From: an uncultured virus (IMG/VR IMGVR_UViG_3300032167_000064)
Lineage: Duplodnaviria; Heunggongvirae; Uroviricota; Caudoviricetes
Virus record (IMG/VR): IMGVR_UViG_3300032167_000064
Coordinates: 1 to 64,000 of that record
DNA length: 64,000 nt
Strand: one strand, 5' to 3'
Below, one piece after another: positions 1-64,000 of this stretch. Position 1 is the stretch's first letter, and the number at the start of each line of letters is the position of its first letter. The translations under genes and the position numbers were made by a program. A model generated the notes under the pieces. That model worked only from the letters and a program-made list of their open reading frames with translations. It was not told the DNA's origin and did no database searches.

Positions 1-103
1 TATCACAAGATGATGATGTTGTAACTGTGCCTTCTGAATTCATTATCAAAACTCTAGAATTAGTTCCAGTAATTTTATTTTGCTTATTAGCTAAATCATT
101 ATT
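1..103 (-). CDS. Start-less tail-fibre cassette C1 (partial, runs off window edge)
   Basis: CTAAATCATTA at 91-101; minus frame reads NNDLANKQNKITGTNSRVLIMNSEG..., open to the window edge. Confidence 0.7.
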
Positions 104-181
104 AAGAATTATTTATATTTATTAAAATTTTTTAACGAAATTTTATATAGTTACTTACACTGTAAAATTCTACCAATATAT

Positions 182-424
182 AATAATGATTTAGTTGGTT
201 ATGATGGATCATTAAAAATACATGATATAATTGTATCTAAAGATAATGGAGAATCTTATATTTCTTTAAATTATAATCCTGGAGGAATTGGCTATTTAAT
301 AGGTCAAGTAAATTCTAATGGATCTATAAGTAGAATTGTAATAGATGGAAACAAACTCATATTTCAATATTTTTCTGATATTTCAACTTTTGTTGGGCAA
401 ACAATTATAGCAGAAATTATATAA
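182..424 (+). CDS. Start-less cassette C2 (80 aa, putative fibre tip)
   Basis: TAATGATTTAG at 184-194; open frame NNDLVGYDGSLKIHDII...QTIIAEII*; no start codon, absent from ORF track. Confidence 0.7.
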   Translation, partial: NNDLVGYDGSLKIHDIIVSKDNGESYISLNYNPGGIGYLIGQVNSNGSISRIVIDGNKLIFQYFSDISTFVGQTIIAEII

Positions 425-710
425 TAATGATTTAGCATCAATTGCAGGTATGAATGATGGTATTAAACTTAGAGTAAAAACTGGAACAAATACTTTAACG
501 TCAATATTTTCAAACTTAAATCCTCCAGCTATTTGTTTTTGTAGCACTGAGAATATAACAGATAAACCATCTGGAAAATATGGTACAGTTCTTATAATGA
601 AAGCTTCAGATAATAGAATGAGTGCAATTTGTATTACTATAGACGGATTATGTTATATTAATTCTTATAATACGTCTACTTCTGATTTAACTGGTTGGAA
701 ATCATTATAA
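423..710 (+). CDS. Start-less tail-fibre tip cassette C3
   Basis: Site at 425-435, its extended form overlaps the stop of C2; NNDLASIAG continues in frame into ORF 450..710 ending ...TGWKSL*. Confidence 0.75.
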   Translation, partial: NNDLASIAGMNDGIKLRVKTGTNTLTSIFSNLNPPAICFCSTENITDKPSGKYGTVLIMKASDNRMSAICITIDGLCYINSYNTSTSDLTGWKSL

Positions 711-807
711 TATAATATCCAGATAGGTTTTAAAACCTATCTGGGCTTTTACTTGTGAATAATTTAATTTGATTATATATTATATTTATAGAAAGGAAAA
801 GCAGTTT

Positions 808-1281
808 ATGATTTTTGATACTTATAAAGAAATTATAATTGAAGAAGATAGTATAAAAAACCTACAGTATGTTTTACATATAAGAGACGACAAATCATTA
901 GATATAGAACTATTAGATTTTAATAAAAAGTATTTTGGTTCTATAAATACCATTATTGCTAGAAATAAAGATGATGAATCTATAAAATGTATTTATATTG
1001 AAGATGTTAGAACTAACTATATTAACCAAGGAAATGGTACACTTTTATTACAAAGATTAATTAAATATTGTAAAGAAAACGATATTGATTTTATTTATGG
1101 AAATTTATCCAGATTTGATTATGAAGATCACCAAGAAAGATTAATTCATTTCTATATAAAGAACGGTTTTGAAGTTCTTATATTTCCTAAAATAAGTAAT
1201 AATGGAATCGATGTGGGTCAGATAAAATATAATGTAAAAGGTGGTGATAATAATGAAAAAGCTTATAGTAGGAAAGACTAA
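808..1281 (+). CDS. GNAT-family acetyltransferase
   Basis: NQGNGTLLL acetyl-CoA motif A and FYIKNGF motif B; SD gaaagga before ATG 808. Confidence 0.75.
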   Translation: MIFDTYKEIIIEEDSIKNLQYVLHIRDDKSLDIELLDFNKKYFGSINTIIARNKDDESIKCIYIEDVRTNYINQGNGTLLLQRLIKYCKENDIDFIYGNLSRFDYEDHQERLIHFYIKNGFEVLIFPKISNNGIDVGQIKYNVKGGDNNEKAYSRKD

Positions 1282-1516
1282 AGTTTCGAAATATTTTGCT
1301 ATATACAAATGTCCTATATGTAATACTCTTATGAAAACAACAAATAATCCTATTGAAATACCTGCAGAGGAAATACCTAATTTGTTAGCAAAAGTTATTA
1401 GAAACCAATCTTTTATAGGTAATCCTTATTTATATGAAGCTCCGATGCATATACCTCATAATTGTTCTAATGGAGATTTTGGATTAGCTCAATTTGCTGG
1501 ATTTAAAAGAATATAA
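1253..1516 (+). CDS. Small Zn-binding protein, paralog of next gene
   Basis: YKCPIC...HNC..FGLAQFAGFKR; SD ggtggtg. Confidence 0.6.
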   Translation: MKKLIVGKTKVSKYFAIYKCPICNTLMKTTNNPIEIPAEEIPNLLAKVIRNQSFIGNPYLYEAPMHIPHNCSNGDFGLAQFAGFKRI

Positions 1517-1531
1517 AAGGTGGTGATAATA

Positions 1532-1768
1532 ATGGCTGAAGTAATACAGCGTCCAATGAAATGGTATCCGATTTATAGATGTGGTATATGTAAACATTGT
1601 ATATCATATAAAACACAAACTGCTGAAATGAAACCTGAACAATTAGAAGATGAAATGGCTAAGGTTGTTTCAGGACACTATAAAGACAAGATTCCTATGT
1701 ATGTTACACATAAATGCTCTCATGAGCATTTTGGATTAGCAACTTTTGTAGGTTTTGAGAGAGTATAA
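1532..1768 (+). CDS. Small Zn-binding protein, paralog of previous gene
   Basis: YRCGIC...HKC..FGLATFVGFER; same upstream aaaaggtggtgataataatg. Confidence 0.6.
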   Translation: MAEVIQRPMKWYPIYRCGICKHCISYKTQTAEMKPEQLEDEMAKVVSGHYKDKIPMYVTHKCSHEHFGLATFVGFERV

Positions 1769-1791
1769 AAAGGAGGAAAGAGGTAATTATT

Positions 1792-2334
1792 ATGAAAGAA
1801 AGATTAAATGATTGGTGGAATAACAATGAGCCCGATGAAGGTCTTATTTATCGTCATGGATTAGGAAAACAGTGTATATTTGTTAGAGATACCATTATGC
1901 TTAATCTGTTTCTTGGAATTGCTACAGATTATCATAAATATAATGATTTCTCTGATGAACGCTCTAAATTGTATGAGAGTTTTCATCCTTCTGTTATAGG
2001 TACCCATACATCTAAATCTGTAAAGTTGCCGGTTATGGAAATGGATATGTCTGAGAAACTTGGTATTAAGATTATTCTTAGAAACAACTTCTATGATTGG
2101 TGTATTTCTGTAGAATCCGAAAATGAAATAGATTGTGATTGGTTAAGATTAATTAATCCTACTATTAAAGGTTACTTTGAAGGTTTCCCTAAGGACAGAA
2201 TATATGCTCCTTACAGTGAAACTAATAGAAAGAACTTTAGTGTAGTTCTTAATGGAGAATATGAAGTTTACACTTTCATGTATATCTTAAAGAACTGGGC
2301 TATAGATAAATTTAATATTTTTGGAGGTATGTAA
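1792..2334 (+). CDS. Hypothetical protein
   Basis: 180 aa ORF with SD. Confidence 0.7.
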   Translation: MKERLNDWWNNNEPDEGLIYRHGLGKQCIFVRDTIMLNLFLGIATDYHKYNDFSDERSKLYESFHPSVIGTHTSKSVKLPVMEMDMSEKLGIKIILRNNFYDWCISVESENEIDCDWLRLINPTIKGYFEGFPKDRIYAPYSETNRKNFSVVLNGEYEVYTFMYILKNWAIDKFNIFGGM

Positions 2335-2335
2335 A

Positions 2336-2692
2336 ATGAAGATTGAAAGAATGATTGAACAGTTAAAGAACATTGCAGAAAAGTGCCCTGGTGCAGATGT
2401 CAAATTACATCATCCTACAGGTAATGTTGCTCTGTTTTGCCTTTGTACAGTAGCTTCTACTGATCCTACTCGATCAGGTTCTGTATTTATTGAAGATGCT
2501 TCAGATATTGATGTAAGAAATGAGTTATATGCTCAGATTGAACATGCAAAAGATGTAAAAATAAAAGATGTTGATCTTATAAATAATCTTCTTGATATTG
2601 GATTTACTTGGAAAGATTTTGAAGAATATCTTGATGAATCTGATTTCAGACATTTTGTAGATATAGCAAATGCTCATGGTATTATCATATGA
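2336..2692 (+). CDS. Hypothetical protein
   Basis: ORF with SD ggaggt; operon context. Confidence 0.65.
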   Translation: MKIERMIEQLKNIAEKCPGADVKLHHPTGNVALFCLCTVASTDPTRSGSVFIEDASDIDVRNELYAQIEHAKDVKIKDVDLINNLLDIGFTWKDFEEYLDESDFRHFVDIANAHGIII

Positions 2693-2910
2693 ATAAAATA
2701 AAATTGCTTGTAATATCTATATTAGATGAATTTGAACAACTTCTTGAAGATACTGATACTACTATTCCGGATGAATTTAGAGAAGGTGAAGAAGGAGAAG
2801 CCAGATTATTTGGAGATGGATATTATAGATTAGAAGATAGTATTTATAATATGATATACAGGGAATTTATTATTCAACCAATAGAATTTATAGATAAAGG
2901 AGAATTATAA
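2689..2910 (+). CDS. Hypothetical acidic protein
   Basis: ATGA overlap with upstream gene. Confidence 0.6.
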   Translation: MNKIKLLVISILDEFEQLLEDTDTTIPDEFREGEEGEARLFGDGYYRLEDSIYNMIYREFIIQPIEFIDKGEL

Positions 2911-3380
2911 TGAATCTCAAAACAAAAATAAGAATAGAATCTAAGGATATAGCAGCTATTAATTTATTAATGACTCATATTAAAAATGAATTCCTTAGTA
3001 GAGCTTTTATTTTAAAGAATGGTATTGTTGAACTGGTGGATTATTCTATTGAAGAAACAAAAGATGAATTATATTATATTGAACTTAATTGTTCCGGTAG
3101 ATTTAATAAAGTTCTAATACCTACATTGATAGATAAGCATACACTTGGAATGGAGTCCACTAAATTTGATCTAATAACTATCCATATTTATCCCGAAGAC
3201 GATAGTAAAAATGGTGATATTGGTAATATGGTTTATGAGCAGTTTGTTGGTCATGAAGATTATATTGATAGTGCTGTTGTATTAAATACAGATGAAGGTA
3301 TTCATAGTTTTATTTGTGATGATAGTTCTAAATTTCCTTTATTTATATTAACCAAATTTTATACAGCTTTTGACAAATAA
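2910..3380 (+). CDS. Hypothetical protein
   Basis: TAATG coupling, SD aaggag. Confidence 0.65.
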   Translation: MNLKTKIRIESKDIAAINLLMTHIKNEFLSRAFILKNGIVELVDYSIEETKDELYYIELNCSGRFNKVLIPTLIDKHTLGMESTKFDLITIHIYPEDDSKNGDIGNMVYEQFVGHEDYIDSAVVLNTDEGIHSFICDDSSKFPLFILTKFYTAFDK

Positions 3381-3452
3381 TAAATCAAATAAATAATCCC
3401 CTGGGTTTTACAAAACCCAGGGGATAATATTTTATTTTTTCACCGGATAAAA

Positions 3453-4925
3453 TTATACACCAATACTGTCAATATTATCGATAATATAATCAGCTGTAGC
3501 GATAGCAATCTGTGTAGCATTTTCGCTCATAATTTCTTCTTCAGACATGAAACCGCCAATAACTGCTTCGATAAGACCTTCATATTCTTCATATTCGAAG
3601 TTTTCTTTAACTTCTTCCTGATTCTGCTGAGCAGCTTTCTTCTTATCAGAAATCTTTTTAGCAGCAATTGCAGCAGCTGCACCTGTAGCAGCAACACCAG
3701 CACCAATAGCAGCAGTCTTACCAGGATTATTCTTGATAGCAGTACCAACATTCTTAGCAGCAGTACCTACTGCACTGGCAGCATTCTTAATCTTAGATCC
3801 AAGAGTTTCCTTAGCCTTATCACCAACAACCTTAGTATCAATCATCTGAGATTCGATCATATAATCAGCTACTTCACAAGCAAACTCGGAAGCATTTTCA
3901 GCCATGATTTCTTCTTCTGTCATGTTAGCAACAACGAATTCTACGAGCTCTACATATTCAGGATACTCATAGTTTTCTTTTACTTCTTCTTCTTTTTCCT
4001 TAGCAGCAGCTTTCTTTCTGTCAGCAATCTTCTTAGCAGCAAAAATACCACCTGCAGTTGCAGCAGCTACACCAGCACCGATACCAGCAGCTTTACCAGG
4101 ATTAGCCTTGATCCAATCAGCAGCTTTACCAGCAATATTCTTAGCTTTCTCTCCACCTTCTGAAGGAATAGTAGCAAGACTTGTATTCTGATTAACTACT
4201 GCAGGAAGATTCTTCTCTTCAGCAGCTTTCTTAACAATTTCACTAGCCTTAGCAGCAGCTTTAGAATTCTTCTTTGCAGCTTCCTTAGCAGCAGCTTCAG
4301 CAGCTTTAATCTTCTTCAGAGAACGCTGTTCTCTTGCTTTCTTAACATATTCACTCACATCTGCTTTCTTATCAAGGCTTCTACCTTTACCAGCAAAATC
4401 TCCAGCAAGCTTTCCTTCTTCTTTAGATTTCTTAACAGCATCAAAAGCCTTAGTTAAAGTTTCCTTAGCAGAAGCCTTAGTATCTTCATCACCACCGGAA
4501 CGATTTACTAAGTTATGAGCTTTAAGAACAGCTTCTCCAGCTTTCTTCTTTGCTTCATCAGCCTTAACACCACCAGCCAACTCAGACTGAGTTGCTCTCT
4601 TAAGTAATTTTGCTGCCTTTTCAGCTGCCTTCTTTTCTTTAACTTTCTTGAACTCATTCAAGATATATAAAGCAGCTTCCATAACAAAATCTTCTGCGTT
4701 TTCCATAGCAAGCTGATCTTCGGTCATAAGACTTGTAATAGCTTCTACGAGAACACCGAAGTTAACCTCTTCGTCTAACATAATTTCTTCTTCAATAGCT
4801 GCTTCGCATAAAACATTAGCTGCTTCAACAAAGAATTCATTAACAGGCTGTTCGTTAGATGATTCAGTCATAGTTTCATAACGTCTTGCTTTAACAAGAG
4901 CATCAGCGTATGTTACACCATTCAT
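3453..4925 (-). CDS. Ala/Lys-rich probable internal virion protein with duplicated hydrophobic module
   Basis: Two copies of IKxNPGKxAxIGAGVAA...AAKKIxDxKKAA...EEVKENxEY; strong codon bias; SD ggagg. Confidence 0.55.
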   Translation of the reverse strand: MNGVTYADALVKARRYETMTESSNEQPVNEFFVEAANVLCEAAIEEEIMLDEEVNFGVLVEAITSLMTEDQLAMENAEDFVMEAALYILNEFKKVKEKKAAEKAAKLLKRATQSELAGGVKADEAKKKAGEAVLKAHNLVNRSGGDEDTKASAKETLTKAFDAVKKSKEEGKLAGDFAGKGRSLDKKADVSEYVKKAREQRSLKKIKAAEAAAKEAAKKNSKAAAKASEIVKKAAEEKNLPAVVNQNTSLATIPSEGGEKAKNIAGKAADWIKANPGKAAGIGAGVAAATAGGIFAAKKIADRKKAAAKEKEEEVKENYEYPEYVELVEFVVANMTEEEIMAENASEFACEVADYMIESQMIDTKVVGDKAKETLGSKIKNAASAVGTAAKNVGTAIKNNPGKTAAIGAGVAATGAAAAIAAKKISDKKKAAQQNQEEVKENFEYEEYEGLIEAVIGGFMSEEEIMSENATQIAIATADYIIDNIDSIGV

Positions 4926-5068
4926 TGTTTAATCCTCCATTAAAAAATATTTTCTGATTTTTAGCATAACTTTTTCTATTTTGAAGAAAAGTGTAGCTTT
5001 TAAATATATGTGAAAAGAATTTAGTATTAACTTAGTTTATAATTAATACTATAAGGAGGGTTCATAAT

Positions 5069-5440
5069 ATGAGTAATATGAATAAAAGAATCAGCAAAGA
5101 TATAATTATTTACATTGATGGAATTAAATGTAGATGTAATACTATTAATATTACTGTATACGAATCTTATAATATCCCTAATGATAAAATTGAACAATTT
5201 GTGAATAGATTAAGAACCGAATTATCAGTTGTTGATGGTATTGAATTTAAAAGATCTAAAGAAAGTTTTATCAGAGAAATATATGCTCATAATGTTTTAT
5301 ATAGAAGAAATATTTATGTAATGAGCTCTAAAGATACTGATATTACTGATAATGAAGAATGGTATAGATTATTAGCTTTCGATACTATATATTACATTGG
5401 ACAATTGACATATAAACTCAAAAATATATTCAAGAAATAA
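5069..5440 (+). CDS. Hypothetical protein
   Basis: SD aaggagg; 123 aa. Confidence 0.65.
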   Translation: MSNMNKRISKDIIIYIDGIKCRCNTINITVYESYNIPNDKIEQFVNRLRTELSVVDGIEFKRSKESFIREIYAHNVLYRRNIYVMSSKDTDITDNEEWYRLLAFDTIYYIGQLTYKLKNIFKK

Positions 5441-5451
5441 AAATATTAAGC

Positions 5452-6060: not shown

Positions 6061-6144
6061 GGTGTCATTCCCCCTCTCGATATTATACATAAGTTGATCA
6101 ATTAATACAAAGAAGGGAAGATAACTACCATTACACTGGTACAC

Positions 6145-6873: not shown

Positions 6874-6990
6874 AGATCAATCCTTCTTTCTATAAATTTT
6901 ATTATGATGTGCAACTTATATCAACAATCTTTATTGTAAAAAATTACAAATTATTTTTACCCATAACAATAAAGTACTGAAAAAGTAGAA

Positions 6991-7628: not shown

Positions 7629-7808
7629 CAATACTGATTCTAAAATATTTTTATAAATGAAATAAAGATTCCCATAGGAAGAGATTCCTATGGGAGTTTT
7701 GTTTATTTTTTCATATTAACTATCTGAACTTCTTATTAATATACCGATTATCGATTTTATAATACGGTATTCTAAAAATATAATATAGAAAAATAGGAGG
7801 TAATTATT

Positions 7809-23183: not shown

Positions 23184-23555
23184 AATAATGATTTAGCTAA
23201 TTTAACTCAATGGGAAAAAATTGGTCCATATACAGGCAAAGTATCATCAGGAAGTTTAGGTATTGGAGTTGCAACTTCTGTTATGGAAGTTATTGTAGTT
23301 GCAAAATTACAAAATAATAATAATGTTATACTTTCTGTACATATACCTTATATATACAATAGTACTAACAATACTTCTGGTACATCATATACAAAAATAA
23401 GAAGTGGATATTTTCAAAATGGTTCCAATGGAGGATATGCAGATTTTGCAATAAATGATTCTGGAAATTATATTCAACTTCATAATGCTTATTTAAATGG
23501 AAACGATGTATCTAGTTCTACAGTATGGGAAGTTTATTATCGTTATAAAATATAA
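23184..23555 (+). CDS. Start-less fibre-tip cassette C4
   Basis: Site at 23186-23196; NNDLANLTQWEK in frame with ORF 23283..23555; homologous to C10 C-terminus. Confidence 0.75.
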   Translation, partial: NNDLANLTQWEKIGPYTGKVSSGSLGIGVATSVMEVIVVAKLQNNNNVILSVHIPYIYNSTNNTSGTSYTKIRSGYFQNGSNGGYADFAINDSGNYIQLHNAYLNGNDVSSSTVWEVYYRYKI

Positions 23556-42008: not shown

Positions 42009-42704
42009 TTAAGAATAAGCTATTTGTGAATTTACTATCCATAAAATAGTAATTGTATAGTCTTGAGTAACTTCTCCAATAGCTCTAACAATCATATTTC
42101 CTGTATTATTAATAGGACCATTTGTTACAAGTCTTGTATTCCAGTCAATAGATGGAACGCATGATGTCATAATTCCTAATTGTACACCTCTTAGAGATAA
42201 TCCTTCTGTAATAACAGGTGTACAAATTATTGGTTTATCAATATTTGGTGTTAAATTTTGTACTCTATAAGTATATTCACAGCATATAACATTTCCAAAT
42301 GCTCCAAATCCATTGGATATATCAAAAGCAATATTACTACTTCCATCTAAATAACAAGTTTGATTTCCTATAGTTATAGAGACAGGATTGGTAAATTTAT
42401 TACAATATTCTGAAGTTCCATCGAAATAATATCCTCCCCAAATTCCTTTATTATAAAGATCTATTTCCATATGAGTTGATGCACCATTTACTTTTGAAGT
42501 ACCATCAGCTGAATCTATACCTATAAAACGTAATAAACCATTATAATTATCTATACATATTCCACTAATATTCTTAGATTTAGAACATGCATCTAATCTT
42601 AATTCTCCACCTTCACTACTAGTACCTTGTGGACTTATAGACAAATTACCAGCAAATAATTTAGCATTAGTATTTGCTGGTAATTTATTAGCTAAATCAT
42701 TATT
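42009..42704 (-). CDS. Start-less tail-fibre cassette C5
   Basis: Site at 42692-42702; NNDLANKLPAN...; only an SD-less TTG upstream; shares SEGG.L.L.A..DNYNG with C9. Confidence 0.75.
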   Translation of the reverse strand, partial: NNDLANKLPANTNAKLFAGNLSISPQGTSSEGGELRLDACSKSKNISGICIDNYNGLLRFIGIDSADGTSKVNGASTHMEIDLYNKGIWGGYYFDGTSEYCNKFTNPVSITIGNQTCYLDGSSNIAFDISNGFGAFGNVICCEYTYRVQNLTPNIDKPIICTPVITEGLSLRGVQLGIMTSCVPSIDWNTRLVTNGPINNTGNMIVRAIGEVTQDYTITILWIVNSQIAYS

Positions 42705-45861: not shown

Positions 45862-46161
45862 TTAAATTAAATAAGTTGTACAAATACTAAATCCAGTGAT
45901 ATTTTCCATAAAGAAAACTTTTAATATACCGGATGTTTCTATTCCACAATAACCAACAACAAAACGATCAGCTACTTGTGCAATTGCGAGAAATTGTAGT
46001 CCATTTTTTGGACATATATCAGTAGATAATGTACATATTGTAGTCCATGTTTTTGCCTGTATATTAATATTACTAATAACTACAGCAATGGTAACTGCAT
46101 TTCTACATTTAAATGTTCTTATACCTGACATGGGAACAGAAATTTCTACAGCTAAATCATT
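45862..46161 (-). CDS. Start-less fibre-tip cassette C6
   Basis: Site at 46152-46162; NDLAVEISVP in frame with ORF 45862..46131. Confidence 0.75.
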   Translation of the reverse strand, partial: NDLAVEISVPMSGIRTFKCRNAVTIAVVISNINIQAKTWTTICTLSTDICPKNGLQFLAIAQVADRFVVGYCGIETSGILKVFFMENITGFSICTTYLI

Positions 46162-46183
46162 ATAAATATTAATAATGATTTAG
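46152..46183. repeat. 32-bp near-perfect palindrome (head-to-head cassette sites)
   Basis: CTAAATCATTATA-AATATT-AATAATGATTTAG. Confidence 0.9.
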
Positions 46184-46662
46184 TTGATTATAGTAATGGT
46201 ACTAAGATAGTAGGTAAAGCTACTAGTGCTACATCAGCATTATATTGTGGAAGTGCTGGAAGTGCTGGTAAAGCTACTTCTGCTACTAGTGCTAGATATG
46301 CTACTACAGCTACTAATGCTGGTACATCTAACTATGCTAAGAATGCTCCTACTTATCAAGGTGCTACTACTGCAGCTGCTGGTGTAAAAGGATTAGTACC
46401 TGCAGCTACTACTGCAACTAAAGATAACTTTTTAAGAGGTGATGGTACGTGGGCTACACCTAGTAAAGCTACTAGTGCAACATCAGCAACATATTCATCT
46501 ACTGCTAATTATGCTAAGAATGCTGGTACTGCTAGTTATTCTAGCAATGGTGCAAAAGCTAGTTCTGCTACATCTGCTACATATGCAGCTACTGCTAATT
46601 ATGCTAAGAAGAGTAATATTAGTATGAGTGTATCTGGTACTACTCTTACTATTACATTTTAA
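46171..46662 (+). CDS. Start-less tail-fibre cassette C7 (163 aa)
   Basis: Site at 46173-46183; KATSATSA repeats and GLVPAA...FLRGDGTW fibre repeat; missing from ORF track. Confidence 0.8.
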   Translation, partial: NNDLVDYSNGTKIVGKATSATSALYCGSAGSAGKATSATSARYATTATNAGTSNYAKNAPTYQGATTAAAGVKGLVPAATTATKDNFLRGDGTWATPSKATSATSATYSSTANYAKNAGTASYSSNGAKASSATSATYAATANYAKKSNISMSVSGTTLTITF

Positions 46663-47137: not shown

Positions 47138-48289
47138 AATAATGATTTAGCTGGATATGGATCAGGTACTAAAGTAGCAGCTAAAGCAACATCTGCTACT
47201 AGTGCTACTTATAGTTCTACTGCTAACTATGCTAAGAATGCTGGTTCTGCATCTAAAGCTACTAGTGCTACATCAGCAACATATGCTACTACTGCTACTA
47301 ATGCTGGTTCTGCATCTAAAGCTACATCTGCTACTAGTGCTACTTATAGTAGTACTGCTAATTATGCTAAAGCTGTACCTAGTACTGTAGCTAGTAGAAT
47401 TAGTACATTAGAAACGTCTTTTCGGGATGGCTGTAATACAATAATGCAGGCAGTTACAGCCAAAGGACAAACTCCTGCATCAAATAGTCCTACTGATATT
47501 GCTACTGCTATTTCTGGTATTGGAGAGGGATTTTATAACGCAGAATTAGTATATAGAGCTACTAAATCTTCAAGTGCTTCCAAAGAACTAACTGTATCAG
47601 ATACTTATACTTTGAAAGAAAGCGGATATTATTTAGCATTTCTTGGAGGATTTAGTTCAACTCTTAACACAGCATATACGGTACCAAATACATCATCATT
47701 ATTATATAATTCAAGTGCATCATTTACATCGGATGGTAATACAATAGTATATGGTCAAGGTGCAGGTGGTGGTACAATTCATGATTATTCAAAATATGCT
47801 ATTTTTTCTGGAGTCAAAGATAAAACGATTTCTTTTAATAAGTATATTAAATCAGATTACTATAACGTCTGTGCTGCAACTGCATTTGGATTATTTAGAG
47901 TTGAACAGGGTACATCGTTACTGTATAAAACATATAAAACAGGAACTGCTAAAGAAAAAGTTACTATAAGTGCTAGCTACAATATTAGTACAGCTGGTAA
48001 ATATCTTGTAATAGCAGCAAGTCATGGTGCTGCTGTAAATGCAGGATATACAGATGCAATAACAGGTATCAAAACAACTATTAAATTCAATGATAATGTA
48101 GTAATTGATCTTCCTGTTAATGAAAAAATGAATGTGAATTCCGGAAATAATCAAGGTTCAATATCTTCTGATGTAGAATATGCTTTTGTAGAAGGAACAG
48201 GAACTGTTTATGTAGAAAGATATTATTGTACACATAATACTTATACTGCTTTTGCTTCACTTGAATTATTTATATTTAAAATTGGATAA
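47138..48289 (+). CDS. Start-less tail-fibre cassette C8
   Basis: Site at 47140-47150; NNDLAGYGSGTK + S/T/A repeats in frame with ORF 47444..48289. Confidence 0.8.
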   Translation, partial: NNDLAGYGSGTKVAAKATSATSATYSSTANYAKNAGSASKATSATSATYATTATNAGSASKATSATSATYSSTANYAKAVPSTVASRISTLETSFRDGCNTIMQAVTAKGQTPASNSPTDIATAISGIGEGFYNAELVYRATKSSSASKELTVSDTYTLKESGYYLAFLGGFSSTLNTAYTVPNTSSLLYNSSASFTSDGNTIVYGQGAGGGTIHDYSKYAIFSGVKDKTISFNKYIKSDYYNVCAATAFGLFRVEQGTSLLYKTYKTGTAKEKVTISASYNISTAGKYLVIAASHGAAVNAGYTDAITGIKTTIKFNDNVVIDLPVNEKMNVNSGNNQGSISSDVEYAFVEGTGTVYVERYYCTHNTYTAFASLELFIFKIG

Positions 48290-55205: not shown

Positions 55206-55221
55206 AAATAATCCTCCTCCC

Positions 55222-55968
55222 TTAAATATTAATATTTAAAGTATTTGTAGAAGTATCGTAATTGAAACAAGCATCGTCAATCATTCTTCTCCAACCGCTC
55301 CATGTAGAATCGTGTTTATATCTAACATGCATAGTTCTTTGGAATGAATAACATCCCCAAGCAATTTGTACAGCTCTATTTCCTGCAGGAGCTCCTACTG
55401 TAAGAACTTCATACCAAGCTGCATCGGGAAACTGAGGACTGGGTTCGTTGTCAATAGGTGAATTTCTAACTACATAACAGAGTTTATTCCAACATTTATG
55501 TCCTACTGTCATAGAATTAGAAAATATATCTGTAGATGTAGTATTTTCTCTCAAACTATTTACATTACTTGCACTAGATGCATATGTAGCACTAGTAGCA
55601 GAAGTAGCTTTGCTAGCAGTACCTGCACTGGTTGCTGTAGTAGCATATCTTGCACTAGTAGCAGATGTAGCTTTAGTAGATATACCTTTAAATGTATATA
55701 ATTGAGAGTCATCTGAATGTATAGTTCTAGAATAAGGATCAATATGTAATACAGTATTACCTGTTTTTGAATTATCTTTTGGTGCAATGCCAAAAATTCT
55801 AAATACCCCATTATAGTTATCAAGAGATATACCATTCATAGATGAATTGTCATCTGGAGCTTCTAAATCCAATTGTCCACCTTCAGATCCTCCTGTCTGA
55901 GGTTTTATATTTATAAGTCCTCCAAATATACGTCCACCATTAATACCAAATTTCTTAGCTAAATCATT
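55222..55968 (-). CDS. Start-less tail-fibre cassette C9
   Basis: Site at 55959-55969; NDLAKKFG...; KATSATSA repeats; AVQIA...HDSTWSGW knob-like region. Confidence 0.8.
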   Translation of the reverse strand, partial: NDLAKKFGINGGRIFGGLINIKPQTGGSEGGQLDLEAPDDNSSMNGISLDNYNGVFRIFGIAPKDNSKTGNTVLHIDPYSRTIHSDDSQLYTFKGISTKATSATSARYATTATSAGTASKATSATSATYASSASNVNSLRENTTSTDIFSNSMTVGHKCWNKLCYVVRNSPIDNEPSPQFPDAAWYEVLTVGAPAGNRAVQIAWGCYSFQRTMHVRYKHDSTWSGWRRMIDDACFNYDTSTNTLNINI

Positions 55969-56025
55969 AATAATAATTATTCTTCTAGGTTAATATTAAC
56001 CTAGAAGAATAATTTAAGTGTAAAA

Positions 56026-56631
56026 TTAATGAGCAGCTGCAGGTTCAGTAGTCCATCTATAATATATAGTCCAAGTTGTAGTAGAAGATACATCATTACC
56101 ATTTAAATATGCATTATGAAGTGAAAAACTATCTCCAGCATTATTTATTTTAAAATCAGCAAAACCTCCATTAGAAGAATTTTGGAAATATCCAGCTCTT
56201 ATTTTTGTAAGTTCAGGTACAAGAAATTGTTTTCTTTCATTATGATATACATATGGAATATGTACAGAAACAGCAACATTATCATTATTATCTAACTTAG
56301 CAGTTATAATAACCTCATAAATATTAACACCAACACTCATACCTAAAGTTGAACATGTAACTTTGCCGGTAAGTGCCGAAATTTTATTCCATCTATGCAA
56401 ATATCTTGTCATATCATTATTTACATCTATATATCCTAAATTATTATTATCAACATATAATTTGACTTTAGTACATAGATTATTCATACTATCATATTCA
56501 AATGAAACGGCGTTATCGGTTCTACTTGTAGTTACAAATCCTGTGCCGCTATTGCCACCTTTGCATACAGATGATACTAACATTTTTTCTGTATCATTTA
56601 CATAATTTTCAATAGAATCTAAATCATTATT
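56026..56631 (-). CDS. Start-less fibre cassette C10
   Basis: Site at 56619-56629; NNDLDSIENY in frame with ORF 56026..56583. Confidence 0.75.
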   Translation of the reverse strand, partial: NNDLDSIENYVNDTEKMLVSSVCKGGNSGTGFVTTSRTDNAVSFEYDSMNNLCTKVKLYVDNNNLGYIDVNNDMTRYLHRWNKISALTGKVTCSTLGMSVGVNIYEVIITAKLDNNDNVAVSVHIPYVYHNERKQFLVPELTKIRAGYFQNSSNGGFADFKINNAGDSFSLHNAYLNGNDVSSTTTWTIYYRWTTEPAAAH

Positions 56632-56650
56632 AATATTAATAATGATTTAG
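56619..56650. repeat. Perfect 32-bp palindrome (head-to-head cassette sites)
   Basis: CTAAATCATTATT-AATATT-AATAATGATTTAG. Confidence 0.95.
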
Positions 56651-57648
56651 CTGGATATGGTAGTGGTACTAAAGTAGCAGCTAAAGCTACATCTGCTACT
56701 AGTGCTAGATATGCAACAACATCAACAAGTGCTGGATCTGCATCTAAAGCTACTAGTGCTACATCTGCAACATATGCTACTACAGCTACTAATGCTGGTA
56801 CTAGTAACTATGCTAAGAATGCTCCTACTTATCAAGGTGCTACTACTGCAGCAGCTGGTGTAAAAGGATTAGTACCTGCAGCTACTACTGCTACTAAAGA
56901 TAGTTTCTTACGTGGCGATGGTAAATGGGCTACACCTAGTAAAGCTACATCTGCTACTAGTGCTACTTATTCTAGTACTGCTAATTATGCTAAGAATGCT
57001 CCTCAATATAAAGGTGCTACAACAGCTGCAGCAGGAACTAAAGGATTAGTACCTGCAGCTACTACTGCTACTAGAAACTACTTTTTAAGAGGAGATGGTA
57101 TATGGGCTATGCCTTCGGCTTCTGCAGTAGAAGGTAATGTAAGATACAATGAAACTTCAGATAAACTTGAAATATATTATGAAGGAGAATGGATATCAGT
57201 ATTATCTTGTGGTTTACAAACAATAAATTTGATTGGAACAGATTATACTTATCAAGAAGTATCTACAGCAAATCCTACATATTCTTTAACATTTTCAAAT
57301 GGTATTAATTTACAATATAATAGAACTTCACAAGCATGGGGACATTGTTTAGTAAAAAAATCTACATTTGTTGATCTTACTGCATTTGAAAATCTATATG
57401 TTACTTATAGTGGAACATATACTACTAGTACTGATAGTGATTATAATAAAATTGATATTCAATTTTATAATGAATCAGATGTTTGTATTTGGGAACAACG
57501 AATTACAGATAATGGAAAATCAACATTTACAAATGTTACGAAATCATTTGATATTAGTACTTTGCAAGGAAGATGTAGAATATGTTTCAAAGTAAATGCA
57601 AACGGTAGCAATATGACATTAAATGTATCCAGTTTGTATGTAGACTAA
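56638..57648 (+). CDS. Start-less tail-fibre cassette C11
   Basis: Site at 56640-56650; two GLVPAA..FLRGDG.W repeats, in frame with ORF 57109..57648. Confidence 0.8.
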   Translation, partial: NNDLAGYGSGTKVAAKATSATSARYATTSTSAGSASKATSATSATYATTATNAGTSNYAKNAPTYQGATTAAAGVKGLVPAATTATKDSFLRGDGKWATPSKATSATSATYSSTANYAKNAPQYKGATTAAAGTKGLVPAATTATRNYFLRGDGIWAMPSASAVEGNVRYNETSDKLEIYYEGEWISVLSCGLQTINLIGTDYTYQEVSTANPTYSLTFSNGINLQYNRTSQAWGHCLVKKSTFVDLTAFENLYVTYSGTYTTSTDSDYNKIDIQFYNESDVCIWEQRITDNGKSTFTNVTKSFDISTLQGRCRICFKVNANGSNMTLNVSSLYVD

Positions 57649-57666
57649 ACAAATACTCCAGAGGTG

Positions 57667-58923: not shown

Positions 58924-59013
58924 AATATGGAACCTCCTTGTATATAATTTACTAAAAAGTAGAAAATCTAATATATTACAACTTTAAAATAAAATGAAAT
59001 TAGGAGATTTAGT

Positions 59014-59586
59014 ATGGATAATAAGGTAATATTTTTAGATATAGATGGTGTATTAAATGGGTATAATTTGAGAGTTCATCTAATTACAACTATTATGAGA
59101 AAATGTAGATATATAAGAAAATATGTAGATATTTTTTCTGTGCATATAGTTAAAGTTTTTATCCTTTTTCTTATAGTAAAATTATCAAAATCTGATATAG
59201 TTTTATCTAGTTCTTGGAGAGGTGGATATTGGGCAATACCTTATAACGTTATGAGTAAAAGATGTAAGAAATTGTATATTTTGTTTAAAATATTTCATAT
59301 AAATGTAGTAGGTGCAACAACTTCTAAATATACTGATAGGGGAGCACAAATTATAGATTACCTTGATAAACATAAAGAAATATCTTCTTATGTTGTAATA
59401 GATGATGAAATGTTCGATATCAAAGAATATATTTCTCAAGACAAATTGATTTGTACAAAAGCTAGAAAAAATAGATTAATTAAATTTAAATGTGCTGGTT
59501 GTTATGATGGTGCAGGATTAAAATTACGTCATATTATACCAACTTTGCAAATTTTAAATACAAAAACAATCCCTAGTGAGTTTTAG
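59014..59586 (+). CDS. HAD-superfamily domain protein
   Basis: IFLDIDGVLN, VLSSSWR, YVVIDD. Confidence 0.8.
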   Translation: MDNKVIFLDIDGVLNGYNLRVHLITTIMRKCRYIRKYVDIFSVHIVKVFILFLIVKLSKSDIVLSSSWRGGYWAIPYNVMSKRCKKLYILFKIFHINVVGATTSKYTDRGAQIIDYLDKHKEISSYVVIDDEMFDIKEYISQDKLICTKARKNRLIKFKCAGCYDGAGLKLRHIIPTLQILNTKTIPSEF

Positions 59587-59606
59587 CTCACTAGGGATTA
59601 TCATTT

Positions 59607-61598
59607 TTATTTACCATTTCTCTTTTCTTTTACTCCAAACACACAATAGTGTTCAAAATATGCAGATAAAGTCTTTGATTTGAATGCAATTCTTAAGTCA
59701 GAATAACGATTCTTATAATTGTTGACGTTGAATGTTGCACATCCTATTCTACCTTCGTTCATACCATAATCTACGAAATGCTCAAACAACTTGATAGCAG
59801 TCTTTCCATATACTTTTGCAACGTCAGGATATTTAGTTGCATAATAAGTAGCATCAAATACAGGACTGTAATCAATATTATTTAAATAACACTTACCATT
59901 TGATACTTTGATAGAACCAGCTTTAGATTTACCAGTAGCATTTGTAACAGGTACATTTACAACAGGAGTTGAATTACCTCCCATAGCAGCCTTCATCTTA
60001 TTATAAGAATTAGTACCATATACACCATCTGCAACTAAACCATTAGCTTTCTGGAATTTTTCTACAGCATCTTCTGTTTTTGCACCAAAACTTCCATCAA
60101 CTGTAAGTCCAGCATTAATCACCTTATTAAGGTTCTGCTGAAGTACCTTAACCTGATCGTTCTTCATACCTTTCTTTAAAGTAGGCTGAGCAACTGTAGT
60201 AGAAGTTGTAGATGTGCCAGACTTAAGTTCTAAAAGAACTTTCTCTTCTACCCATCCAGTAATCTGTCCATTAACACCAACTCTTGATTTAGAGTTAGTC
60301 ATTCTTACTCTACCATTTACAACTTCATTACTCCATACATAGAATGTACCTGATTTTTTAACTCCAGTTTTAGCAACAGAAGAACCATAGAAAGTTACAT
60401 TCTGAAGTTTGAAGCTTTCACCAGTCACAATTTCTTTGGAAGAAGGAGCAGGAGCTACAGGTGTTGTAGATTCCTCTTCATCGTCATAATCAATAGGATT
60501 AAGAGGTACATTTACATTACCTTTCATATTAAAGTAATTAAATACACCCTGAGCAATTTCTTTTGCACATTCTCTGCAGAAAGCATCTGATTTCAACAAA
60601 TCAGATTCATTCTTATTAGTCATAAATGCAGCTTCAATTAAGGCAGCAGCTTTTACTCCCATTGCAGTACAGTTACACATAGAAAGAGCCATTCTCTTAA
60701 CTCCTCTGTTTTTCTGTGCAGTTCCCTTAATAAGTTCATTCTGGATACATGTAGCAAGTTTTGCAGAATCTCCAGCTTTGCTATCTACAGCATGGTACAA
60801 AGTTTCCACTCCCTGACCAGTTGTATATTCCTGACCATTTCCATGTGCATTTGCATGAACTGAAATACAGATTTCTGCACCCCATACTTTAATCTGAGCC
60901 TGTCTTGCTGTAAGTGCAACATCTGTATCATCTGTAGCATTTTCATCATCCCAAGCAACCTTTAATGTTTCAATGTTGTTTTTGGTGAGAATCTGATCAA
61001 GATAATATGAGATATATACATTACTGTAGTGCTCACGATATCCATCAGGATGTCTCTTACCAGCAGTATTAGATCCATGACCAGCATCAATAGCTACTCT
61101 GTGAAGAGCAACAGTCTTAGGATCATATTGAGTAAGATTATTTGTAGTAAGAACTCTGTATACATTATCTACATAATTAATAGATGTAGCATATCCTGCA
61201 GCCTTGATTTTTACAAGGTACTGATAAGGATCTGTTTCACCCTTCAACGCTTTATAGTTTGCAATATTGATAAACTGGAAGTAACCTTCTACACATTTTT
61301 CAATACTATCAAATCTGTACCAAGCCGTTGATGTAGGTAATAATGTATAACTACCATCAGCATTCTGTTCTGAACCACCATCTTCAAAGTAACCATTATT
61401 GCAGCTAACTCTATTCTGTCTATATTTCAAGCCAAGAATATTGTTATACAAAGCAGCTTTCTTAGATGTACCATATCCTGACTCAAGACATGCCTGAGCA
61501 ATAATAGGCGAATGAACTAAGATACCATACTTGGGTGCATATTTTTGCACACATCTAGCTACTTCTTTGATGAATTCACTTTTAGACATAACAGCCAT
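59607..61598 (-). CDS. Multidomain lysin: GH73 glucosaminidase + amidase_3 + PG-binding
   Basis: AQACLESGYG, GYATS..Y; IDAGHG, ISVHANA, LIEAAF; LKKG..LQ.NLN. Confidence 0.9.
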   Translation of the reverse strand: MAVMSKSEFIKEVARCVQKYAPKYGILVHSPIIAQACLESGYGTSKKAALYNNILGLKYRQNRVSCNNGYFEDGGSEQNADGSYTLLPTSTAWYRFDSIEKCVEGYFQFINIANYKALKGETDPYQYLVKIKAAGYATSINYVDNVYRVLTTNNLTQYDPKTVALHRVAIDAGHGSNTAGKRHPDGYREHYSNVYISYYLDQILTKNNIETLKVAWDDENATDDTDVALTARQAQIKVWGAEICISVHANAHGNGQEYTTGQGVETLYHAVDSKAGDSAKLATCIQNELIKGTAQKNRGVKRMALSMCNCTAMGVKAAALIEAAFMTNKNESDLLKSDAFCRECAKEIAQGVFNYFNMKGNVNVPLNPIDYDDEEESTTPVAPAPSSKEIVTGESFKLQNVTFYGSSVAKTGVKKSGTFYVWSNEVVNGRVRMTNSKSRVGVNGQITGWVEEKVLLELKSGTSTTSTTVAQPTLKKGMKNDQVKVLQQNLNKVINAGLTVDGSFGAKTEDAVEKFQKANGLVADGVYGTNSYNKMKAAMGGNSTPVVNVPVTNATGKSKAGSIKVSNGKCYLNNIDYSPVFDATYYATKYPDVAKVYGKTAIKLFEHFVDYGMNEGRIGCATFNVNNYKNRYSDLRIAFKSKTLSAYFEHYCVFGVKEKRNGK

Positions 61599-61719
61599 AA
61601 TTAAAACCTCCTTTTTAGCGTTATTAATATTAGGTGCTATGTAAAAAACAACAAAAAATATATTTTGGAAATAAATGGCAGATAGGATAAAAATCCTATC
61701 TGCCGTTCTTTTCTATATT

Positions 61720-62454
61720 CTATTTATTTTTACGCTCACATAAGATTTCTCTTCTGATGAGATTATAATCATGATTAAAGATAATTTCATAGTATCTATA
61801 AAAAGCCATTGGGTTTTTAACCAGCTCTTTATAGCTGTAATTGACATAATAAAAATCTGCCAATTCGGAATCAGGGATATCATAGCATTTATCAGTCCAA
61901 GTAGTAGTAAGATCTCTTATCTTACTATGATTACCAGTATCATAATCACAAACAACACTTTCTAATATCAATAATGGGTTGTTAGAGTTTTTAGGATCAT
62001 TGTATTCTGCAATGAATCTATTATAAATGTCTTTATTAAACTCAGCATCTTCATAATGCCACAAGCTTCGTCTTAAATAATCACGGCAATAATCAGCTAA
62101 AGAATATGCCGTATGAGTTTTAAAAGACATTCTATGAGCAACTACATACATATGCCTACTTTTATCAATAAGATAGATCATAGCAGCAGTTAATTTGGTT
62201 AATTGAAATTTTTCTTTTTCTCCATTTGGATTAGTAATCTGCACACATTCTCTAAAATAATACCAGATATTATGCAAACATTCTAATTTAACTTTATTTC
62301 TTGTCAACTCATCAAGATTAGGATCATTTGGATCAACGTTAATCAGTGTATGATCATTTAATCTTAGCATGAAGTCATAATTATTAACTCCATTATTTTT
62401 GAGTTGCTCGGATACTCTAAGAAAACTTTCATTAGAAGTTTTAAAATTAACCAT
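61720..62454 (-). CDS. Truncated terminase-large-subunit-like protein
   Basis: L..VDP.DPNL...EC..N.WYYFRE N-terminus; degenerate Walker A (HRMSFKT). Confidence 0.5.
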   Translation of the reverse strand: MVNFKTSNESFLRVSEQLKNNGVNNYDFMLRLNDHTLINVDPNDPNLDELTRNKVKLECLHNIWYYFRECVQITNPNGEKEKFQLTKLTAAMIYLIDKSRHMYVVAHRMSFKTHTAYSLADYCRDYLRRSLWHYEDAEFNKDIYNRFIAEYNDPKNSNNPLLILESVVCDYDTGNHSKIRDLTTTWTDKCYDIPDSELADFYYVNYSYKELVKNPMAFYRYYEIIFNHDYNLIRREILCERKNK

Positions 62455-62518
62455 AGATAACACCTCCTTCTTTGGTTACTTACTAAGATGTATACAAGAG
62501 GTTTCTAATAAGAACTAT

Positions 62519-63181
62519 AATGATTTAGCTGGGTATGGTAATGGTAGCAAAGTAGCAGCTAAAGCTACTAGTGCTACATCAGCAGTATATTCTTCTACTA
62601 CTAACTATGCTAAAGCTAGTGCTGGTGCTACTACTGCATCTAAAGCTACATCTGCTACTAGTGCTACTTATTCTAGTACTGCTAATTATGCTAAAGCTAT
62701 ACCATCTACGATAACTACTAGATTAACAAATCTTGAAACGTCTTTTCAGGATGGCTGTAATACAATAATGCAGGCAGTTACAGCCAAAGGACAAACTCCT
62801 GCATCAAATAGTCCTACTGATATTGCTGCTGCTATAAATGCAATTCCTAATATATCAACAATATATGGAGATATAGTTGCTGGAGTTGGTGGATATAAAT
62901 CAACTAAAATAACAGCTGTCAATGCTGCTCATTTTTGTAATCAGGAATATTTATTAAATAGATCTGATGGGCAATGGGATGTATTAAAAGCTGGAACTTA
63001 TAGAGTTGCAATGTATTCACAGAATTCATATGTTTATTTTTCAGTAAATGGTACACAGACAAATTTAAAGTTTGGTCAACAATATATAGACTTTAATTTA
63101 AAGGTAGGAGATATTGTTTGTTTTTATCGAGATATATCTCAAGCAATGTATTGTTGCGGATATATTTGTTATATAGGATAA
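62519..63181 (+). CDS. Start-less tail-fibre cassette C12
   Basis: Site at 62518-62528; NDLAGYGNGSK; shares a 93-nt block with C8. Confidence 0.8.
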   Translation, partial: NDLAGYGNGSKVAAKATSATSAVYSSTTNYAKASAGATTASKATSATSATYSSTANYAKAIPSTITTRLTNLETSFQDGCNTIMQAVTAKGQTPASNSPTDIAAAINAIPNISTIYGDIVAGVGGYKSTKITAVNAAHFCNQEYLLNRSDGQWDVLKAGTYRVAMYSQNSYVYFSVNGTQTNLKFGQQYIDFNLKVGDIVCFYRDISQAMYCCGYICYIG

Positions 63182-63217
63182 TAATATCGGTAGTCTGATA
63201 AAGACTACCGATATTAT
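63181..63217. terminator. Bidirectional hairpin between convergent C12 and C13
   Basis: 15-bp stem with the same tgataaa loop. Confidence 0.75.
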
Positions 63218-63219
63218 AT

Positions 63220-63993
63220 TTATTTTGTTATATAAATCATTCTGAAAGTAAATTCTACATATCCGGTAAAAGTTTCATTACTACCAATTACCATATACTG
63301 GTGATTATAATAACCATCTGCAATAATATGTCTTGTTGTATCTGTTAAATTTCTAGGTCTAAGTATTAATTCGCCTCTTAAATCATAATCAGATTCTCTA
63401 TCCATTGCCCAAGGTAAACTAAATAAGGAAGTGTTTTTAGGTATATCTTGACCAGATCCATATGTTCCAGAACACATAACAACAGCAACTTTACCAAATC
63501 TTTTACAATAATTATCAGCAAGAGTTGCACTCCAAGCAGTACATTGAGACGTTTCTACAGTTATATTTGAACCTTCTGTGATACCAAGATTTAATATATC
63601 CTGTTTTGTTACAGCTGTAGCTCCTGTGATATGACCGAGAGAATTAACAGTTATATTGTATAATCCTTTATTGTAAGCATTATAACTAGGATGAGTATAA
63701 AAATTTGCATCTCCTGAATTTAATTTCTTATTCCAAGGTACAGATATAGCCCAAGATCCACCTGAATTAGTTAAAGCTGTTGTATATATAACAGATCCAT
63801 ATCCTACCCAACCTATTAAATATATAGAAGTGCTTGATGTTTTTCTTGCCAAAATATACATTGTTTCACCACTATAAATTTCAGGTAAACCAAGATTAGT
63901 ACATTTACATACATATGAACCACTATCATTAATCTGACTAATAGATGTAATAGTAGTTATAGTATTATCTTTAGGAGACAAAGCTAAATCATT
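63220..63993 (-). CDS. Start-less tail-fibre cassette C13
   Basis: Site at 63984-63994; NDLALSPK...; YTHP..., ITVNSLGHITGATAVTK.DI fibre motif. Confidence 0.8.
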   Translation of the reverse strand, partial: NDLALSPKDNTITTITSISQINDSGSYVCKCTNLGLPEIYSGETMYILARKTSSTSIYLIGWVGYGSVIYTTALTNSGGSWAISVPWNKKLNSGDANFYTHPSYNAYNKGLYNITVNSLGHITGATAVTKQDILNLGITEGSNITVETSQCTAWSATLADNYCKRFGKVAVVMCSGTYGSGQDIPKNTSLFSLPWAMDRESDYDLRGELILRPRNLTDTTRHIIADGYYNHQYMVIGSNETFTGYVEFTFRMIYITK

Positions 63994-64000
63994 AATAATA

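Follow-up and report, generated by a model that had tools for sequence, protein, structure and literature searches.

The first 64,000 nucleotides of the uncultured caudoviricete record IMGVR_UViG_3300032167_000064 (G000; 124,387 bases, judged about half complete) raise an immediate question: why would a phage carry, dispersed among its genes, a series of stop-free frames that lack start signals and that all open with the same 11-mer, TAATGATTTAG? We refer to this 64-kb stretch as the window. The motif is, very probably, a recombination site for the switching of fibre cassettes, and we read the frames that follow it as parts of a dispersed, genome-scale tail-fibre shufflon.

Thirteen exact copies of TAATGATTTAG occur in the window, seven on the plus strand and six on the minus strand (Table 1), whereas 100 dinucleotide-preserving shuffles of the same sequence averaged 0.22 copies and did not exceed 2. 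Across the full record the count is 16 (the 13 copies of the window and three just past it), all within the first 65.6 kb. Read as T-AAT-GAT-TTA-G, the motif encodes N-D-L, and this frame is open at 13 of 13 window copies. The twelve complete cassette frames all terminate with TAA, and each of the 13 copies is preceded by an in-frame stop 2-46 codons upstream. The ATG within the motif is out of the N-D-L frame, reading ATG ATT TAG, and the first canonical in-frame start falls 4-156 codons into the cassette frame or is missing altogether. A Shine-Dalgarno (SD)-like 4-mer was found within 20 nt upstream of two of the 16 record sites; in the comparison set of 90 ordinary open reading frames (ORFs) that begin with ATG and span at least 100 amino acids (aa), 85 had one at -20 to -4. 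The extended site consensus consists of TAA, TAATGATTTA and GCT in succession, with TAATGATTTAG as its invariant core, and three divergent site pairs are separated by 10 bp, one of which (56619/56640) forms a perfect 32-bp palindrome. The initial annotation, made from the window alone, had listed the same 13 positions and strands, expected fewer than one chance copy and noted the lack of SD sequences, all of which agree with these counts. It had also described stop-free frames of 80-380 codons in a common N-D-L frame; frame and openness were as described, and the true range is 79-382. Its further claim that the products carry fibre hallmarks held for their presence and failed as a generality, KATSATSA-type repeats occurring in five of the 13 cassettes and GLVPA/FLRGDG in two.

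Four further IMG/VR records (G001-G004) were found by cassette-protein search and placed relative to the window's record by blastn overlaps (Table 1). The resulting five-record tiling comprises 278,100 bases. Counting as a site the 10-mer followed by G, or the 10-mer followed by the null cassette introduced below, it contains 20 sites across 98.2 kb, eight on the plus and 12 on the minus strand, and each cassette is present once. The capsid, protease, DNA polymerase, tubulin and RNA polymerase genes are situated between motif copies, in agreement with the annotated picture of a library scattered among essential genes. Six additional copies of the bare 10-mer, found inside ordinary genes without the flanking consensus where base composition predicts about three, are probably due to chance. 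One bare TAATGATTTA, followed by C, lies at window 14662-14671 (-), in the N-D-L frame of a 964-aa ORF (13378-16272) that adjoins the capsid gene.

Only one of the 20 sites is preceded by a long in-frame ORF. If U designates the DNA 5' of a site and D the cassette 3' of it, this flank is U24, with 143 open codons; upstream of the other 19 sites a stop is met within 2-46 codons. U24 belongs to the expressed fibre gene (G004, locus L036, 1137..2054 (-)), which starts with ATG and encodes 305 aa, and whose site is that at G003:60256 (-), outside the window. Its product consists of a 125-residue N-terminus (MASYLRPRRGKKATA...GEIFFEVPDTGVGTGTGKIKMGDGTTAYDALPYF...LTTLN), then N-D-L at the motif, then cassette D21. 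The N-terminus matches the product of the neighbouring gene, which carries two Mtd_N domains (Pfam PF18454), at 45% over 60 aa (E 1e-14); the 305-aa protein itself gave no Pfam match. Genes for collagen-like proteins with G-x-y repeats adjoin the fibre gene (G004 4427-5854 (-), 475 aa, and 5941-9873 (-), 1310 aa), and on its sequence the expression locus reads as a tail-fibre module. The collagen-like proteins end near ...DFGDLDE and ...YGDLDANYVNV, and their repeats give many self-matches between records. As a DNA pattern, the U24 flank with the motif matched only G003 and G004 in viral_contigs and had 0 matches in metagenome_contigs; a protein search of viral_contigs with the N-terminus returned the same two records and, with alignment, G006 and one distant record.

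The decisive observations concern the joints at the motif, which differ between records otherwise at least 99.998% identical (Table 1). Three differing joints were found, all of the differences lying between assemblies, and one of them is a clean 23.1-kb inversion. D21, which occupies a silent position in the window's assembly, is fused to the fibre N-terminus at G003:60256 (-) and G004:1671 (-). D24 is a 10-codon null cassette (NDLTFLRFSK, then stop). At its end, over 123 bases, G004 carries window 23073-23195 in reverse complement, and the motif links this stretch to the null cassette, as predicted for an inversion of the 23.1-kb segment from 91 (-) to 23186 (+). The exchanging partners have only the 12-mer AATAATGATTTA in common and base 11 of the motif travels with the cassette (in 22 of 24 contexts it is G, and the null cassette has A), which together place the crossover inside that 12-mer. 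The initial annotation had held that silent C-termini are joined at this site to a constant fibre N-terminus located elsewhere, and had suggested looking for a complete fibre gene with an in-frame NDL and for synteny breaks between related genomes: the gene exists, outside the window; D21 is fused to it in two records; and the near-identical assemblies break exactly at sites. As the joints exist as DNA, joining at the RNA level, which it had also considered, is unnecessary.

All of this evidence comes from metagenome assemblies, and two of the variant joints lie 91-123 bp from a contig end, G000 ending 91 bp past its U21-D21 joint. The joints might accordingly be regarded as assembly chimeras formed at a short repeat. 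We find this barely credible, given that the shared word of 10-13 bp is far below assembler k-mers, so that a joint needs spanning reads, and that the U24-D21 joint lies kilobases inside two independent contigs (G003 and G004) while the U21-D24 joint has 21 kb of G002 on one side and 46 kb on the other.

A reading of the motif as an expression signal, be it a promoter or start for a phage RNA polymerase or an unusual translation start, would make each cassette an independent gene. In favour of such a reading are the TATAAT-like, A/T-rich DNA that precedes the motif, an ATG conserved at 1 nt from the cassette frame, and the multisubunit RNA polymerases that the phage itself encodes. It leaves unexplained, however, the exchange of DNA at the motif between identical genomes, the presence of the motif in frame 125 codons after the fibre ATG, and the 10-codon null cassette; the divergent pairs 10 bp apart offer no space for two promoters, and there is no slippery heptamer. 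We consider it very improbable. Translational variants of the idea (initiation at a near-cognate codon, leaderless mRNA, or reading of ATG ATT TAG with a subsequent -1 shift or inserted U) were dropped given the DNA joints, and no near-cognate in-frame start was found upstream of 23186 and 62518.

A related phage bears on whether the motif acts as DNA. G006, at about 65-75% DNA identity, shows synteny over the stretch from the expression site to site 91, and retains the exact 11-mer in two places, its fibre gene and a null cassette (NDLA, then stop) in syntenic position. This exact conservation at synonymous positions argues for a function at the DNA level. Both ends of the G006 contig fall within about 100 bp of its two sites. 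Over G000-G004 and G006 together, four of 12 contig ends lie within 125 bp of a site, where sites and their flanks make up about 2% of the genome. Since more than one neighbour in a sample would branch the assembly graph, this pile-up is suggestive of alternative neighbours at the sites. The apparent inverted terminal repeats of G001 (1-127 and 200864-200990; window 46634-46760) correspond to the common 3' end of two cassettes, such shared ends being either 127 bp and identical or 203 bp at 98.5%, and by this comparison they mark an assembly break and not a genome end.

The joints could alternatively be old and rare strain rearrangements, produced by illegitimate or microhomology recombination at a conserved coding motif, with the cassettes as decaying remnants or independent genes. 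Every alternative joint does stem from a different assembly, no mixture within one sample appeared among the Logan contig rows listed, and the phage encodes a UvsX-like recombinase. We nevertheless hold this to be unlikely, though the least unlikely of the alternatives raised here. Firstly, identity is 100% or 99.998% over 6-78 kb on both sides of the joints, as befits very recent events. Secondly, the exchanges use 12 bp of identity despite the longer repeats available between cassettes (203 bp, 98.5%). Thirdly, 20 of 20 cassettes are in frame, and those that are complete run without a stop for 79-382 codons in DNA of 70% A+T. Finally, the 11-mer is exact in a relative at about 70% DNA identity, and contig ends cluster at sites. 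Recombination could also be non-reciprocal, silent cassettes being copied into the expression site by gene conversion in the style of pilE/pilS, with the donors remaining in place; G000 excludes the expression site, and D21 could thus occupy both places in that population. In G004, though, the null cassette and 21 kb of unique downstream genes are joined to the inverted flank of another site, which amounts to a large reciprocal rearrangement, and each cassette occurs once in the tiling. Gene conversion consequently retains hardly any of our credence.

Under site-specific reciprocal exchange at the motif, one expression locus would furnish the translation signals (ribosome-binding site and ATG) together with a 125-aa, Mtd_N-like N-terminus that serves as anchor and ends in ...LTTLN-NDL, and 19 promoter-less and start-less C-terminal cassettes along with the 10-codon null cassette would lie ready in the same frame and in both orientations over 98 kb. 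Recombination within the common AATAATGATTTA would swap whatever is downstream of two sites. Between inverted sites the whole intervening segment would flip (23 kb in the case observed), exchanging the cassettes, so that the constant N-terminus would be followed by a new one, or by the null cassette in what is presumably an OFF state, and the fibre tip would change. The difference between G002 and G004 would represent one such flip. Since the expression site has minus orientation in the tiling, any of the eight cassettes on the plus strand could reach it in one step; the remaining cassettes would first have to be turned round by another flip, which reverses every site it encloses. Both alternative frames of the motif are closed by stops, and in-frame stops occur in the silent flanks; silent cassettes would therefore be shielded from read-through. 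In this model the events would be inversions only. That switching continues within present populations seems to us fairly probable, and on balance we would expect the fibre tips to set host range.

The enzyme responsible may be encoded in the same phage. The initial annotation had recommended a search for a tyrosine or serine recombinase, and an intact tyrosine recombinase gene is present, the sole PF00589 (Phage_integrase) gene in the tiling (G001, about 82.4-83.5 kb; E 1.5e-35), 4.7 kb past the end of the window's record and 63.5 kb from the nearest site. Its 359-aa product has a SAM-like N-domain and a catalytic domain (PF13495, PF02899, PF00589), scores 223 bits against the NCBIfam model NF040815 XerA (cut-off 220), and has XerC-like, XerA and XerD proteins as its nearest solved structures. 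Six catalytic residues, R-K-H-R-H-Y, align with XerD at what we take to be its catalytic positions, within the motifs GMRVSE, GKGAKER, HKFRAT, LGHQS and QCYAK, which have aligned counterparts in XerD and XerA. No serine recombinase (PF00239, Resolvase family) was detected in G000-G004, a search in which 12 of 14 control genomes were matched. As the sole recombinase of either family in the tiling, and with homologues on contigs equal in length to those of fibre homologues (see below), the Xer-like protein is on circumstantial grounds the obvious candidate for the enzyme acting on the site, a role that we assign to it with moderate confidence. A 'transposase' match to PHROG 10081 (36175-37050 (+), E 2e-62) was rejected as the recombinase, as it received no support from Pfam, NCBIfam or PDB; its 390-aa neighbour, window 37057-38226 (+), is unannotated.

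Homologues in public data indicate how far this arrangement may extend. The 128-aa fibre N-terminus matched 233 public proteins (E <=1e-10). Among the 120 listed, identity ranges from 50 to 100% and length from 167 to 452 aa, and LNNDL stands at the boundary in 86. In an alignment of 24 homologues, conservation ends sharply after LNNDL and the C-termini are unrelated; a few homologues carry domains of fibre type such as PF13884 and PF09458. One protein, P0001, combines a 100% identical N-terminus with a cassette absent from this phage (best match here 61.5%). The recombinase has 1,798 homologues at E <=1e-30, and several recombinase and fibre homologues lie on contigs of equal size (103,589, 250,055 and 289,635 bases). 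We lean towards viewing this as an apparently non-temperate jumbo phage with a chromosome-scale programmed shufflon, in which a domesticated Xer-like recombinase would repeatedly flip segments that may reach about 95 kb, or one third of the genome, carrying capsid, polymerase and RNA polymerase genes along, and would select among at least 19 tips or a null OFF state. In the same view the trait would be lineage-wide in animal-gut jumbo phages, because hundreds of N-terminus homologues bear unrelated tips and the recombinase family co-occurs with them, and gene order would be a population variable. A scan of genome_contigs with the fibre homologue P0065 gave as its only match a relative of its C-terminal domain in an Anaerovibrio lipolyticus genome. 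This match to the variable domain (contig L049, 172439-177248; 45%, E 3e-67) may, from the sequence, represent a prophage fibre and offer a hint to host range.

Several results weigh against this interpretation. The U21-D21 joint of G000 cannot be reached from G002 or G004 by one inversion; it requires three inversions, after which the null cassette would be at the expression site, or a 29-kb deletion between direct sites. The partner product expected of the reciprocal inversion that yields the U02 joint, U21-D02, was not observed, G004 stopping 123 bp past its joint. Logan contigs of four runs over window 44001-64000, at a depth of about 5-7, bridge reference joints (46152/46173 in X2 and X3, 62518 in X1, 55959 in X1); among the rows listed no alternative motif joint occurs (474 loose ends and 707 pieces lie beyond them), and at that depth no mixture of joints within one sample was seen at the level of reads. 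D21 is the only window cassette that was observed in fused form. The six matches to the 47140 cassette include no fusion, the cassette occurring only as the silent, truncated P0241 (281 aa, on 12 contigs). The C-termini of the 120 listed N-terminal homologues matched the tiling in four cases, with 61.5% as the best. Eight cassettes and the fibre were searched against Pfam without a match for the cassettes, and ORFs inside cassettes had no PHROGs match. The recombinase lies at a distance of 63.5 kb even from the nearest site. In G008 and G009, which encode recombinase homologues at 60% and 51%, the 11-mer is not enriched: if up to one mismatch is allowed, G008 has 19 copies and G009 has 22, the reversed control giving 20 in each. 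The junction-like word AATGATGA has four copies in G009, with about 23 expected, and no parallel cassette library was identified in either genome. The most repeated dispersed 12-mers of G009 (249.6 kb) are TTATATACTATAA-like, with up to 23 copies mostly on one strand, and resemble a consensus for phage promoters more than a site for cassettes.

Table 1. Sites with their cassettes in the window, joints observed at the motif, and overlaps between records. Positions of sites refer to the lowest coordinate of the 11-mer.
Record	Coordinates	Strand	Feature	Remark
G000 (window)	1..101 (site 91-101)	-	site and first 33 codons of cassette D21 (NDLANKQNKITG...)	cut by record start; full D21 is 180 codons in G003 and G004
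G000 (window)	184..424 (site 184)	+	site and 79-codon start-less cassette (NDLVGYDGSL...)	stop TAA
G000 (window)	425..710 (site 425)	+	site and 94-codon start-less cassette (NDLASIAGMN...)	stop TAA
G000 (window)	23186..23555 (site 23186)	+	site and 122-codon cassette (NDLANLTQWE...)	partner site in 23.1-kb inversion of G004
G000 (window)	42009..42702 (site 42692)	-	site and 230-codon cassette (NDLANKLPAN...)	
G000 (window)	45862..46162 (site 46152)	-	site and 99-codon cassette (NDLAVEISVP...)	divergent from 46173 (+), 10 bp gap
G000 (window)	46173..46662 (site 46173)	+	site and 162-codon cassette	KATSATSA repeats and GLVPAA..FLRGDGTW
G000 (window)	47140..48289 (site 47140)	+	site and 382-codon cassette (NDLAGYGSGTKVAAKATSATSA...)	
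G000 (window)	55222..55969 (site 55959)	-	site and 248-codon cassette (NDLAKKFGIN...)	
G000 (window)	56026..56629 (site 56619)	-	site and 200-codon cassette (NDLDSIENYV...)	divergent from 56640 (+), 32-bp palindrome; tip homologous to 23186 cassette
G000 (window)	56640..57648 (site 56640)	+	site and 335-codon cassette	two GLVPAA..FLRGDG modules
G000 (window)	62518..63181 (site 62518)	+	site and 220-codon cassette	converges on 63984 (-) cassette
G000 (window)	63220..63994 (site 63984)	-	site and 257-codon cassette (NDLALSPKDN...)	
G000 (window)	91	-	joint U21-D21	
G000 (window)	23186	+	joint U02-D02	
G002	position of 91	-	joint U21-D24	
G002			joint U02-D02	
G004			joints U02-D24 and U24-D21	
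G003			joint U24-D21	
G002 / G000	21476-68144 / 92-46760		overlap	100%
G000 / G001	46634-124387 / 1-77754		overlap	100%
G004 / G002	9137-30624 / 1-21488		overlap	100%
G004 / G003	1-6342 / 58586-64927		overlap	100%
G003 / G001	1-58628 / 142363-200990		overlap	99.998%

Some observations concern the cassettes themselves. The public proteins P0243 and P0245 share the silent flank and cassette of 62518-63181 in variant form, one KATSATSA unit fewer (233 aa) in one case and another distal half (383 aa) in the other, and cassettes therefore probably also vary internally, through their repeats. Several cassettes and public homologues share the ending ...SGTTLTIT(F/Y/I). Logan contigs of two runs join 62748 to 47425 via 79 common letters; this joint, like that between 56963 and 46566, falls in repeats common to cassettes. 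All four runs further contain a contig that joins 56292 to 46153 with one extra letter, at a depth of 12-18 compared to 5-7 for the phage; 46153 is the edge of a site and 56292 is not a site. Atlas scores for the cassette, at most 0.82, are leads only.

As to the carrier, PHROG and Pfam matches include several split multisubunit RNA polymerase beta and beta' pieces, a split DNA polymerase, a major head protein, a prohead protease, a PhuZ-like tubulin, endolysins, topoisomerase II, a ligase and the UvsX-like recombinase. By its gene content, the window's genome can be assigned to a phiKZ-like jumbo phage of about 278 kb, and the tubulin together with the split multisubunit RNA polymerases suggests the nucleus-forming type. 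The tubulin (window 31738-32841 (+)) scores 34.1 bits against the Pfam Tubulin cut-off of 33. Beside site 62518, a 247-aa ORF (61723-62463 (-)) is an N-terminal piece only of the terminase large subunit, matching positions 9-130 of the 210 in PHROG 32359; the remainder was not located. The standard genetic code fits the record, and an alternative code was rejected, as TAA (113), TAG (20) and TGA (13) all end ORFs and ORFs cover 91% of the record. The window contains no tRNAs, and no DNA similarity to it was found among 50,697 GenBank phages. The stretch is present in 24 public runs, in each case as Logan contigs; the runs are labelled as metagenomes from the gut or faeces of animals.

What a phage can achieve, in nature and in use, is limited mainly by its host range, and known tail-fibre switches offer between two and a few dozen variants from a compact locus. 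Here one virus would store about 19 complete alternative tips and an apparent OFF state. The cost of switching would be the inversion of large blocks of essential genes, leaving gene order and orientation free to vary in these phages, which would also explain why such genomes break into contigs at particular places. The features described (fibre frames without starts, the short in-frame site that opens them, a single N-terminal anchor and a solitary Xer-like gene) may be used to search other metagenomic phages, and the cassettes may provide a natural set of interchangeable receptor-binding modules with a predefined junction.

Comparable logic is known from several systems. The R64/IncI1 shufflon employs the Rci tyrosine recombinase and sfx sites to vary pilV, in a locus of about 2 kb with four segments beside rci. 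The present system resembles it in its tyrosine-family recombinase, in its many short sites in both orientations with one side strongly conserved, and in the in-frame joining of a constant N-terminal gene part to alternative C-termini; the convergent arrangement of 62518 (+) and 63984 (-) likewise recalls a classical shufflon segment. It differs in having 20 sites over 98 kb with essential genes between them, an Xer-like recombinase 63.5 kb away, and a phage fibre instead of a pilus adhesin. Min of p15B, Gin of Mu and Cin of P1 are serine invertases acting on compact 3-4-kb segments beside the invertase gene, Min at multiple sites. They too swap tail-fibre C-termini by DNA inversion at in-frame crossover sites, but the five records here contain no Resolvase-family gene. 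In the vsa/HvsR system of Mycoplasma pulmonis and the sap system of Campylobacter fetus, one expression site contains the promoter and 5' end, and silent genes are activated by site-specific inversions, sometimes of tens of kb; these are cellular surface antigens whose cassettes lie in one or two clusters. The single expression site and the silent genes without a 5' end are shared with the phage described here, whereas its viral nature and dispersed cassettes are not.

Among phages, dispersed fibre shufflons in jumbo genomes had no description in the literature searched, from which subscription journals fell outside coverage, and only compact phage versions were found. A 2026 review of jumbo phages contains no mention of inversion, invert, shufflon or tyrosine recombinase, and in a 2021 comparative survey the term tyrosine recombinase appears solely in connection with a topoisomerase. 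One compact case is that of BV01-like Phocaeicola phages, in which a tail-fibre shufflon occupies a 1.7-kb window with directional 10-bp motifs, three cassettes and six isoforms (PMC13596623). That locus is flanked by its recombinase, belongs to a temperate phage, and differs in configuration between samples (PMC13596623). In both cases short motifs separate non-homologous cassettes at the distal end of a fibre gene, but the sites described here are dispersed, number 20 and lie distant from the recombinase. Two further articles concern the Rin shufflon of Bifidobacterium prophages, a compact locus with programmed inversion of a receptor-binding gene (PMC6109161), and a survey of gene-altering programmed inversions that includes phage receptor-binding genes in compact prophage loci (PMC9881135). 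The compact, recombinase-adjacent locus characteristic of shufflons is absent from the present genome, whose sites are spread over 98.2 kb and interspersed with genes for structure and replication. The logic of the shufflon is already known; what differs here is its scale and layout, namely a set of 20 sites dispersed through 98 kb, segments that may reach about 95 kb, a distant Xer-like recombinase and a phiKZ-like carrier.

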